From Candidatus Porisulfidus sp. TsSOB (GTDB lineage Bacteria > Pseudomonadota > Gammaproteobacteria > Poriferisulfidales > Poriferisulfidaceae): a stretch of 64,000 nucleotides of DNA. The DNA is taken from NCBI GenBank assembly GCA_002631715.1, contig MRSX01000004.1, forward strand, positions 19,864 through 83,863, read 5' to 3'. Shown one piece after another: positions 35,862-38,800 of the stretch (positions within the stretch are counted from its first letter, which is position 1; every line of letters begins with the position of its first letter). The notes under the pieces were generated by a model. The model had not been told where the DNA came from and did not search any database. It worked only from the letters and a program-made list of their open reading frames with translations. The translations under genes and the position numbers were made by a program.

Positions 35862-38585
35862 CTAGAACTGCAGGTCGAGGCTGAAGGTAGCGCCGTACTC
35901 CTCGCCGCCGGAGCCCAGCTCCTCGCGGGCCGACAGGCTGGCATGGATTTCTAGGTCGCCCCGCCGCCAGATGCCGCCTACCCCGAGCAGGAGACTGTCG
36001 GTCTCTGACCGGGCCGTCAGCCGTTCTCCCGACACCCGCGCCGTGGTCTGTCCATCGCCCAGCCGGTGCTCAAAATCCAGCGACCCCCAAAGGGATGGTC
36101 CGCTTTCCGTTGCAGGGGACGCCGACTCGGCCATCACACCCAAGGCCACTGCAGACCTGCCCTCGTCCGAATACGAGACCCGCGCCTTCGCTGTATCCGT
36201 GAAGCGATCCACCGACATGTTTGCATGCGTCAGCCGAATTCGCGGGGTCAGTTGCATATTCCACCGCTGCAGGCGCCGCCCGGCCTCCAGCCGCAGGCCC
36301 CAGGCGGTGGCTTTCACGCCTGACTTCAACCGGCCGCGCTCGTCCGAGGACAAATCCAGGTCGTAGCGCGCTAGCGCGAGCCGCCCCGAAGCGTACCAGT
36401 CCCCGCTTTCGCAGCCGCGGCACAACTCCAGCGACAGTCCTAGGCCCTGCATGTCGATGTCGCCGCCTTTCATCGGCGAGGATACCTCCGCGGTGCCGTC
36501 GAGGTAATACAGGGCCACCCAGGCATCGAGGCCGTTGTCCAGGAGGACATGCTTGCCAGCCTCGATCTCAAAATAGTCCGTGTCATACTCGACCCCCACG
36601 GTCGAGCGCTTAAAGTCCTGGGACCCGGTGCGCCCTGTCACCCGGACCCATTGTGAACGCTCAGGCCGCGACAGGGGTGCCCGGACTGCATCCCGCTGCT
36701 GCAGGCGCAGCAGCACGTCCGGCAGGGCCTCGTACAGGGCCGAACGCGGGGCATACTCCTCCATGAACATGAGTCGGGCTTCGCCGAAGTCCACGGCCGA
36801 GAAGTCCCGGTCGGCAATGACCCCGGCAACCGGATCGCTGACCACCCAGTTCGCCGGGTCCGGATCTGTGCGATCCAGCACCCGGACGCCTTCTTCACGG
36901 ATCCGTACATCGTTCGCTTGGGCTCGCACCTCGAAAGCCCCGTTCGGGGCCGAGGCTCCGGGGACCACGCCGGTGGTTGCGTCGTGCAGCTTCACGCCAT
37001 TGACGACGAGGGTGGTCCCGCCGCCGTCGTTGATAATCCAGTTATCCCCGATTACCTGTGACACTTGGCGACCGTCAAGGTCCATGTCCACCCGCAGTTT
37101 CGGTGGAATGGCCGCGACAATGTTATTGGAATCGCTACGGTCTTCCGGCACCGTGCCCGTGGCCAGGATCGCGATCCCCGAATCCGAAGCGATGCTGCCC
37201 TGCGGCCCGATGACTACCCGGCCACCGTTGACGAGGTAGATTCCCGGGCCTTTGCTCGAGATGCTGCTATCGACCCTCACGGTCTGTCGGCGGTAGCCTT
37301 CGTCATCCAGGGCCGCCATGCGTTCCGGGCCGCCACTGCCGACGTTTCCCACCCGCACCCCCTGTGCGCCCGTCCCGCTCACGGTGACCGGGCCGCCGAC
37401 CGTAATATCGATAGCCCTCGTGTCCGCTGTACCAAAGTGATAGGCCACGATGCCGTGCGAGTTGTGCCCCAATGTCGTGACGGAGGAGCCTTCCCCCAGA
37501 TTAATGTTGATGTTGCCGGAGTTGTGGTGTCTGGCGTAAATACCGTAGGAGTAAGTGGCGTCGTCGTCTCGTACGCCTACGGCATCTCCCGTGCCTTCCG
37601 TCCGGACGGCGTGACGTAGAAGGTCGATGGTGATGTCACCGGTAACGTCATGATCCCCCTGGCTCTCTTGATGCCAAGCGATCACGCCAAAGGCTAGGGT
37701 GCCCTTAGTCGTGGTACTGCCGCCCGTAAGATCAATGTCGATGGAGCCATCACCTTCGCTGCCAGCCTTATAGCCATAAATGCCGTATGAATCATCGCCC
37801 GTGTGTTCGGTGGTGATTTTGCTGTTGGAAATGGTCATTCTGACATCACCCGGGCCAACTTCGCGCGTGGCCCGGAGGCCGCGGGCAATTTCGCCCCGCG
37901 TTGTGACGGTGACTCTATCAGCGGTTAGGATGGCGTGGCTTATGCTCGTACCGGCGTTCTGTTGCTTCACTTCGAGACCTGTTGCACCTCTACCATGCGT
38001 ATTGATAGTGACATCCGTCAAGTCCGCTTCCACATTGCCGACGGCCCGATTCTGGGCGTCGATGCCCTTTGTGTTGTTACCCGTTGTCTTGATTTCGGTA
38101 TCCTCCACCGTGATCGTGATGGCTCCGGTCGTGCCTGTATGCAAGGCAGAAATGGCATCGCCAGGAGAGTCGCCTGTCGTAGTGATCGTCGAGGTGGTTG
38201 TCGTTCCGGAAATGTCGATATCGATGTTCCCGTTGCCCTGATGAAGAGCCTGCACGCCGGGCTCGCCAGTGTTTTGAATTTGATTCACAACTCCAGTCGT
38301 AATGTCGATACCATCGACATCAATGGTGATGGGGTCGGTCGACGAAGCACCTTCCTCGCAATGAATCGGGTCACCTGGCGTGGCGTTGTTGCAATTGGAG
38401 TTTTGGGCGATAGCCGGGGAGCCAAAGACCAATGCCGCCACTAGAAGGCAGGCAAGCGCTTTTTGGCCACAGGAAACCCAGACAGGCTCGTCTAGGCACC
38501 TAGAAGTAGAGAGATATTGAGAAGGGGGGGGGGGGGGGATTAGCCTAGAAAGGCAGGCTGGCCCGTTTGCGGTACGCCCGTCCAT
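35862..38585 (-). CDS. Autotransporter: Thr/Gly-rich beta-helical passenger plus C-terminal beta-barrel
   Basis: Hydrophobic signal core ending AIA-Q; repeated (I/V)TTxG..xGIxA units; linker helix YAPRSALYEALP; amphipathic strands ending FSLDLQF. Start ATG 38585 or GTG 38654. Confidence 0.85.
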   Translation of the reverse strand: MDGRTANGPACLSRLIPPPPPSQYLSTSRCLDEPVWVSCGQKALACLLVAALVFGSPAIAQNSNCNNATPGDPIHCEEGASSTDPITIDVDGIDITTGVVNQIQNTGEPGVQALHQGNGNIDIDISGTTTTSTITTTGDSPGDAISALHTGTTGAITITVEDTEIKTTGNNTKGIDAQNRAVGNVEADLTDVTINTHGRGATGLEVKQQNAGTSISHAILTADRVTVTTRGEIARGLRATREVGPGDVRMTISNSKITTEHTGDDSYGIYGYKAGSEGDGSIDIDLTGGSTTTKGTLAFGVIAWHQESQGDHDVTGDITIDLLRHAVRTEGTGDAVGVRDDDATYSYGIYARHHNSGNININLGEGSSVTTLGHNSHGIVAYHFGTADTRAIDITVGGPVTVSGTGAQGVRVGNVGSGGPERMAALDDEGYRRQTVRVDSSISSKGPGIYLVNGGRVVIGPQGSIASDSGIAILATGTVPEDRSDSNNIVAAIPPKLRVDMDLDGRQVSQVIGDNWIINDGGGTTLVVNGVKLHDATTGVVPGASAPNGAFEVRAQANDVRIREEGVRVLDRTDPDPANWVVSDPVAGVIADRDFSAVDFGEARLMFMEEYAPRSALYEALPDVLLRLQQRDAVRAPLSRPERSQWVRVTGRTGSQDFKRSTVGVEYDTDYFEIEAGKHVLLDNGLDAWVALYYLDGTAEVSSPMKGGDIDMQGLGLSLELCRGCESGDWYASGRLALARYDLDLSSDERGRLKSGVKATAWGLRLEAGRRLQRWNMQLTPRIRLTHANMSVDRFTDTAKARVSYSDEGRSAVALGVMAESASPATESGPSLWGSLDFEHRLGDGQTTARVSGERLTARSETDSLLLGVGGIWRRGDLEIHASLSAREELGSGGEEYGATFSLDLQF
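38524..38538. repeat. G15 homopolymer (C15 on the coding strand of the autotransporter)
   Basis: Direct count of 15 G; encodes IPPPPP in frame. Confidence 0.95.
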
Positions 38586-38800
38586 GACACTGTCAATTCC
38601 TCCGAATGATTTCGTCAAGGAACTGGGCGCCGGAAATTCTAGCACAGAGCACACTCACGAACACACGCGTGCAGCGAATGCCGCGAGGAAACTCCGGCTC
38701 TGATTTGACGCTGAAAAAACGGAGGGTTTCGGTGCTTTTCCTGCCGACCCGCTCCTATGGTATTCTGTATGCCCGTCCGAAGAGCGTCGAGGTTCCGGTT

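Follow-up and report, generated by a model that had tools for sequence, protein, structure and literature searches.

The 64,000-nucleotide stretch of contig MRSX01000004.1 of Candidatus Porisulfidus sp. TsSOB analyzed here (the whole of which is referred to as the window) carries, on its minus strand, a gene for a predicted type Va autotransporter, whose 5' coding region contains an uninterrupted run of 15 cytosines (C15). This tract is probably a translational phase-variation switch (contingency locus) located in the 5' leader of the gene and driven by slipped-strand mispairing. The reading is based on (i) the anatomy of the 5' end, in which the tract separates the only usable start codon from the signal peptide, (ii) differences in tract length between alleles of the same locus, (iii) the intact gene body of all these alleles, and (iv) the recurrence of simple repeats at the same position across the family of related autotransporter genes.

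The C15 tract and the 5' end of the gene

The tract occupies positions 38524-38538, where it appears as G15 on the forward strand and as C15 on the minus (coding) strand. It is exactly 15 nt long and constitutes the sole homopolymer of more than 8 nt in the 64,000 bases of the window, as well as its only true simple repeat (TRF analysis). By our arithmetic, the expected number of such runs in a window with a G+C content of 62.6% is approximately 0.004. The only other homopolymer of at least 8 nt is a C8 run at 62048-62055, whose position suggests that it is intragenic. The initial annotation of the window had read the 15 bases in frame as IPPPPP, and this was borne out: the minus-strand open reading frame (ORF) 35862-38654 encodes I-P-P-P-P-P at this site. 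In the 907-aa precursor, the tract covers the third base of Ile16, the codons Pro17-Pro20 and the first two bases of Pro21. With a unit not divisible by three and a length exceeding about 8 nt of G/C, it belongs to the slip-prone class of repeats.

The proposed translation start, 47 nt before the tract, is the ATG at 38583-38585 (minus strand; MDGRTANGPACLSRLIPPPPP...). The same ATG opens an independent NCBI gene call (P0121, 907 aa) and is also conserved in two sister alleles (L001 and L091) and in a more distant homologue (L002), all described below. The ATG is preceded, at a distance of 13 nt, by the Shine-Dalgarno-like motif GGAGG (38599-38603, minus strand), and, approximately 50 nt from the latter, by a possible extended -10 element, TGcTAGAAT (38636-38644, minus strand); for both motifs, read from the sequence, the assigned function is putative. 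The -10-like element falls on the 5' boundary of a conserved leader module, which is sharp and lies at about 38645. Fifteen codons (MDGRTANGPACLSRL) lead from the ATG to the tract with its I-P5, and a further twenty-one (SQYLSTSRCLDEPVWVSCGQK) separate the tract from a hydrophobic core, which together with the likely cleavage site reads ALACLLVAALVFGSPAIA/QN (the slash marks cleavage). Judged by eye and by the AXA rule, the signal peptide core comprises residues K42-A60 (KALACLLVAALVFGSPAIA; 38406-38462, minus strand), with cleavage likely at AIA/QN. To the eye, the segment KALACLLVAALVFGSPAIA/QN resembles a typical signal peptide, although 42 residues would fall to the n-region.

After the tract, in-frame ATG, GTG or TTG codons occur at just two sites, GTG 38441-38439 and TTG 38432-38430. 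Both are located inside the core (..LLVAALVFGSPAIA/QN), and initiation there would leave a 12-residue signal without a charged n-region. Since no other start follows the tract, translation must cross it. The claim of the initial annotation that the stretch from the tract to the signal core offers no in-frame start thus holds, and a usable ATG accompanied by GGAGG is found only upstream. The tract is therefore placed, as in contingency loci, within the reading frame, between the predicted start codon and the functional part of the protein.

A two-hexamer promoter scan revealed no sigma-70-like hexamer pair in the region 38350-38850 (promoters of other types fall outside such a scan), and an Rfam search of positions 38000-39200 detected no RNA family. 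The arrangement differs from that of promoter-located simple sequence repeats, which are situated between or beside the -35 and -10 hexamers: the C15 lies downstream of both the ATG and GGAGG. A function of the tract as a -35/-10 spacer was considered and rejected, as neither the scan nor inspection by eye identified fitting hexamers. An out-of-frame start at GTG 38469-38467 (encoding MAKKRLPAF followed by a stop), which would need A6 instead of A5, was also rejected, since A5 is present in all three alleles of the locus and the GTG is absent in L002.

Three alleles of the pyrG-linked locus

Two sister alleles of this pyrG-linked locus were found through the cluster members of the protein and were compared with the window allele (C15). 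One of them, L091 (C16), is located on a 1.58-Mb ENA contig with the same pyrG/kdsA/tilS/accA neighbours as the window; the other, L001 (C14), is located on a 13-kb contig from the same ENA sample. L091 shares 99.5% identity with the window over 400 nt upstream of the tract and 98.2% over 2600 nt downstream of it, and the tract is the sole indel in 3 kb. In L001, the C14 run is immediately followed by a 6-nt (two-codon) in-frame deletion. The frame opened by the ATG is joined to the signal peptide in the window allele only, where C15 yields 907 aa; with C16, as well as with C14 plus the 6-nt deletion, it ends after 28 codons (28 aa). Expression of the full-length product (the ON state) would be restored in L001 at C15 and in L091 at C15 or C18.

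These results agree with the predictions made from the window alone, namely that this copy is ON, for which the junction of ATG and signal peptide speaks provided that the 15-nt run was called correctly, and that a change of 1 or 2 nt turns the protein OFF, as seen in L091 and L001. The comparison across samples that the initial annotation had suggested reveals C14, C15 and C16 at the same locus in three assemblies. Tract length thus varies between assemblies while the gene stays intact, homopolymer calling error being the caveat to this comparison. The 2580-nt gene body contains no stop or indel in any of the three alleles and shows pN/pS values of 0.18-0.37, from which we conclude that the OFF alleles are maintained genes and not decaying pseudogenes.

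The same data bear on the possibility that the 5' end of the gene is broken, i.e., that the gene is a pseudogene or starts at GTG 38441, and that the frame is open across the tract by chance. In the C14 and C16 alleles, gene callers did fall back on GTG 38441 (P0001 and P0122; 859 aa), and an exact look-up of the corresponding 859-aa GTG-start product of the window returned no record. A start at this codon, however, leaves MAALVFGSPAIA, i.e., 12 residues without an n-region, which is too short for Sec export. The codons preceding the GTG (GQKALACLL) are, moreover, conserved as protein in L002, and the intact body of the three alleles, with its low pN/pS, does not fit a decaying gene. We consider a broken 5' end highly improbable.

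It may also be asked whether the long leader simply contains a stretch of prolines that is fixed, or a homopolymer that is neutral, the C14, C15 and C16 variants being assembly miscalls and no switching taking place. Every current sequencing platform has difficulty with homopolymers of 14-16 nt, L001 and L091 originate from one ENA sample, with contig names suggesting a long-read assembler, and the tract lengths were read from contigs. Miscalling leaves unexplained, however, that 22 of 76 family loci, from assemblies that are independent of each other and include Illumina SPAdes metagenome-assembled genomes (MAGs), have long repeats of six unit types at this site, that tract lengths range from 9 to 27, and that L001 has a 6-nt indel beside its tract. 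Long G/C runs are intrinsically hypermutable, and a neutral, fixed C15 is therefore unlikely to persist. Altogether, we regard a non-switching tract as quite unlikely. As for the window record itself, the occurrence of C14 and C16 at the same place in two independent ENA contigs, together with poly-G runs beside the leader module in contigs of at least five other sequencing runs, argues that its tract is not an assembly artefact, a concern that the initial annotation had raised.

A conserved leader module

The -10-like element, the putative 5' untranslated region (UTR), the ATG and the first 11 codons form a conserved leader module (38552-38645, minus strand) with 85-95% identity across contigs. 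The stretch 38552/38564-38645 recurs at this level of identity in contigs of at least seven sponge-derived sequencing runs. Each of these copies has a different sequence beyond 38645, whereas the inner side bears a poly-G run, about 11-16 nt or more in length. The TG of TGcTAGAAT marks the outer boundary, also in the homologue L002/L003. We infer that the module is a promoter-proximal transcribed leader common to the paralogues. This approximately 90-nt module is multi-copy across several sponge-derived data sets, the contigs that carry it belonging to runs X1-X3, X5-X7, X20 and X25, and its most conserved part is located around 38600-38632. It may spread by gene duplication, by gene conversion or by a mobile mechanism. 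No further copies were found within the window, and a scan of JGI metagenome contigs with the leader pattern GGACGGNNNTACCGNAANCGGGCC gave 9 matches, all by chance and in unrelated contexts, the loci in question being absent from that collection.

The homologue L002/L003 is 69% identical and resides in a different genomic context; its homology to the window starts at TGCTAGAA. Its tract comprises only C6 and is followed by an in-frame ATG, the codons after the tract being ATG TCC AGG TGC CTA GAC, compared with ACT TCT AGG TGC CTA GAC in the window. By our reading, 9 codons of the leader downstream of the tract differ between the window and L002, 4 of them solely at synonymous third positions; these substitutions therefore fit a translated leader. 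A link between the tract and pyrG (e.g., through reiterative transcription) was rejected, as the tract and module accompany autotransporter paralogues without a pyrG neighbour (L002 and L004).

Simple repeats across the autotransporter family

A scan for related autotransporters, with one genome per GTDB species, returned 77 loci (L005-L081), all from MAGs; several MAG names point to sponge sources, and many of the MAGs are complete chromosomes. The records are labelled Gammaproteobacteria, Arenicellales, Rhodospirillales, Paracoccaceae, Nitrospirales, Vicinamibacterales, Binatia, Poriferihabitaceae, Porisulfidus, a Prochlorococcaceae cyanobacterium, and others. Members sharing 30-67% identity with the window protein occur in MAGs labelled as very different phyla, which suggests horizontal spread of the family among sponge symbionts.

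A C/G run of 9-27 nt is present within the 300 nt preceding the mature N-terminus at 16 of 76 loci. With 13 such runs in 1.04 Mb, the background frequency amounts to 0.0037 per 300 nt, which gives a binomial P of ~1e-23 (with the reservation that paralogues are not independent). When all repeats with a unit not divisible by three are considered, 22 of the 76 loci carry one before the mature N-terminus, against a background of 0.009 per 450 nt. The repeat types are poly-C/G, (GA)n, (GCCT)n, (GCCGA)n and two 7-nt units. Of 14 loci with a tract, a set in which paralogues were collapsed only in part, 13 have an ATG with a frame open into the tract no more than 60 nt upstream; shuffled sequences lead one to expect 6.3 (P ~2e-4), and random positions give about 0.55 per locus. 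The arrangement is particularly clear in L020 (ATG CTG ACT-C10-SRRISALVLLGSLALG) and L021 (ATG TGC TG-C9-RIFALLVLIIF), both of which have a stop just upstream in the frame of the signal peptide and no other start.

Two paralogous autotransporters of a Nitrospirales MAG (OZ242257.1) carry dinucleotide arrays, (GA)25 in L032 (5860-5909) and (AG)21 in L052 (5795-5836). In both, the array follows an upstream ATG, precedes the signal peptide and is read as (RE)n in the signal peptide frame, so that this position is also occupied by a repeat of another, independent type. Further arrays, all with units not divisible by three, precede family members of other MAGs, some of them before the apparent start codon: (CAGACTT)32 plus (CAGACTC)6 in L022 (~5610-5895), (CAAGCCT)8 in L034 (~5740-5795), (GCCGA)16 in L025 (~1-80) and (GCCT)11 in L015 (~5710-5752). 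The layout of the window gene, i.e., a start codon, a frame-shifting repeat and a signal peptide, therefore recurs in many paralogues and orthologues. Most assembled family copies are out of phase, and the gene calls of many homologues begin inside or after the signal peptide, which is how OFF-phase 5' ends appear to gene callers. None of the other long C/G runs in the retrieved loci was found at the 5' end of a further family gene.

Two poly-C tracts situated approximately 100 nt apart, with 10 N between them, are present in L039 (5775-5890; C14 and C17) and in L014 (5740-5883; C11 and C17) of MAG COS4_bin_31. The N runs could stem from scaffolding, with sequences joined at the tracts, or from a genuine insertion into a tract. 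The passenger of L058 (Arenicellales MAG OY760176.1) contains an internal C26 run (7903-7928), which is read in frame as T-P8 and immediately precedes the conserved DRDFS motif. Slippage at this site would cut off the barrel, and the run may be a second kind of switch or a mere proline linker.

In some family members, the tract may instead act on transcription or within the 5' UTR, where a tract in or near the promoter, or upstream of the true start, would tune the mRNA level or translation initiation by its length. In several paralogues, an ATG or GTG followed by a good signal peptide is located 6-60 nt downstream of the tract (19 nt in L053 and L066, 6 nt in L073, and also in others), and the repeats of L022, L034 and L025 are located upstream of the apparent start. 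In addition, the stop of an upstream short ORF overlaps the main start exactly in five loci: as ATGA in L053 (5831-5893), L066 (5807-5878) and L017 (5810-5866), as GTGA in L018 (5822-5851), and as TAATG in L059 (5792-5848). Such overlaps may provide translational coupling and thereby a third expression state; on a rough count, however, they are not significant (5 of 10, compared with 0.25 expected; P ~0.08, our estimate). The short-ORF alternative is excluded for the window gene, because no downstream start exists there. The lack of a sigma-70-like hexamer pair flanking the tract, and the position of the ATG, GGAGG and -10-like element, all upstream of it, likewise speak against a transcriptional or UTR effect in the window, which we hold to be unlikely.

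The autotransporter protein and the neighbouring pyrG gene

The autotransporter gene (35862-38585, minus strand) comprises 907 codons plus a stop and is in frame only at tract lengths of 15 +/- 3n. The last 312 residues of its product match the C-terminal autotransporter beta-barrel domain PF03797 (35964-36650, minus strand; E=1.4e-22, 81 bits against a cut-off of 26, profile positions 2-243 of 255), on the basis of which the protein is classified as a type Va autotransporter. The domain was detected when these residues were used as the query and was missed by the full-length Pfam scan. The protein ends with ...FSLDLQF, and thus with the aromatic residue characteristic of the outer-membrane beta-signal. 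Homologues with 35-97% identity are plentiful; many of them contain PF03797, and some are named autotransporters by NCBI. For the passenger, neither a profile search of PDB sequences nor an NCBIfam scan gave an informative match. A repetitive G-x-x-I/V-D-I/T pattern in the protein hints at a beta-helical passenger, although it is suggestive only.

The divergently oriented pyrG gene (CTP synthase; 38803-40414, forward strand) is read from the same intergenic region as the autotransporter gene. Its likely start is GTG 38803, compared with ATG 38606 in the mechanical list of ORFs, and the pyrG gene calls of the two sister alleles also differ (537 vs. 560 aa).

Proposed switch and its significance

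Several points weigh against a frameshift switch and limit how far it can be generalized. Within the window gene, the signal peptide would be unusual, with 42 of its 60 residues in the n-region, and it shows no match to the extended signal peptide region (ESPR) motif (a Pfam scan of the entire 930-aa ORF, which includes the leader, returned no family), the 13-nt spacing between GGAGG and the ATG is longish, and both the transcription start and the start codon are putative. At this G+C content, a frame that stays open for 65 codons before the core would arise by chance with a probability of about 15%, a figure that also favours a broken 5' end. In the family, L053, L066, L014, L017, L039, L073, L011 and L049 have a normal start and a good signal peptide 6-60 nt downstream of the tract, and a simple frameshift switch therefore cannot explain every member. 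As for the alleles, judging from contig names, the C14, C15 and C16 calls probably come from long-read assemblies, in which long homopolymers are error-prone, so that the difference could be partly technical. The sequencing-run data were available as Logan contigs; among 12 runs compared with the region, no contig of the orthologous locus spans the tract, the contigs breaking there. Such breaks are compatible with, but not informative about, a possible heterogeneity in length.

With these points taken into account, a translational switch is still the reading that we favour, and it would operate as follows. Transcription would probably start just downstream of TGcTAGAAT, and translation would begin at ATG 38585 behind GGAGG and cross the tract as Pro5 to reach the only signal peptide core. 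Slipped-strand mispairing during replication, to which the three alleles point, would alter the length of the tract. Lengths of 12, 15 and 18 would keep the frame and give the 907-aa precursor (ON), whereas with any other length translation would stop after 28 codons and no protein would be exported (OFF). The switch should be reversible, because the gene body is left untouched. Since several homologous genes carry tracts of their own, a population would display shifting combinations of surface proteins, for which host recognition and phage attack are candidate selective agents.

Simple-repeat phase variation is a textbook feature of host-adapted pathogens, such as Neisseria, Haemophilus, Helicobacter, Campylobacter and Bordetella. 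A full-text literature search found no report of it in sponge symbionts. The mechanism is thus of a known kind, while the sponge-symbiont setting and the family-wide pattern appear new. Should the switch be real, symbionts that are uncultured and largely mutualistic would use the bet-hedging of pathogens on a surface protein family that looks widely shared among sponge-associated lineages, which would point to strong, fluctuating selection on the symbiont surface. A broader proposal is that one family, present in sponge-symbiont genomes with the labels Gamma- and Alphaproteobacteria, Nitrospirales, Acidobacteriota, Binatia, cyanobacteria and others, has repeatedly gained frame-shifting 5' repeats, and that stochastic on/off display is a general, convergent trait of life in sponges (e.g., for escaping host phagocytosis or phages), with the short upstream ORF of some paralogues allowing three expression states. 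We put this forward tentatively, the chances of its being correct falling somewhat short of even. On the practical side, genes of this family are easily missed or mis-annotated in MAG surveys, because gene callers truncate or mis-start many of them, and homopolymer length at these loci could mark the state of a population in metagenomes.

Comparison with known phase-variable systems

Promoter G/C homopolymers of about 9-17 nt, located between or beside the -35 and -10 hexamers, control porA, opc and fetA of Neisseria and fim of Bordetella. The tract described here resembles them as a G/C homopolymer at a surface-protein gene; it differs in lying 47 nt downstream of the likely start codon and in having no flanking promoter hexamers. 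In the Opa proteins of Neisseria (CTCTT) and the outer-membrane proteins of Helicobacter pylori (CT), the repeats are situated in the region encoding the signal peptide. Families of the Opa/Hop type comprise several paralogues, each with its own repeat, most of which are OFF at any time. The window gene and its relatives share with them both the position of the repeat, between the start codon and the signal peptide core, and the presence of separate repeats in individual paralogues. Opa (8-stranded barrels) and the Hop porins have, however, different folds and repeat units, and the proteins are not homologous.

The HMW1/HMW2 adhesins of Haemophilus influenzae are controlled by 7-bp promoter repeats that act on transcription. 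In the same species, Lav is associated with GCAA repeats (PMC9022572). These systems are similar in that secreted, adhesin-type proteins are placed under hepta- or tetranucleotide repeats, comparable with the 7-nt arrays and (GCCT)11 found in relatives of the window gene, but not in the window gene itself.

The closest counterparts are NalP and MspA of Neisseria meningitidis, where NalP is ON at 7, 10 and 13 C and MspA at 6, 9 and 12 C, with tract length varying by strain (PMC3723659). The window passenger shows no detectable relatedness to these proteins (PDB and NCBIfam searches), and the window tract is longer (15 nt; 9-27 nt in relatives) and precedes the signal peptide core in a long leader. 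Furthermore, NalP and MspA belong to a human pathogen, whereas the host of the window gene is an uncultured sponge symbiont, for which switching is predicted. What the two systems have in common is a type Va autotransporter with a poly-C tract in its coding sequence, which is ON, or in the window gene would be ON, only at tract lengths of a single phase.

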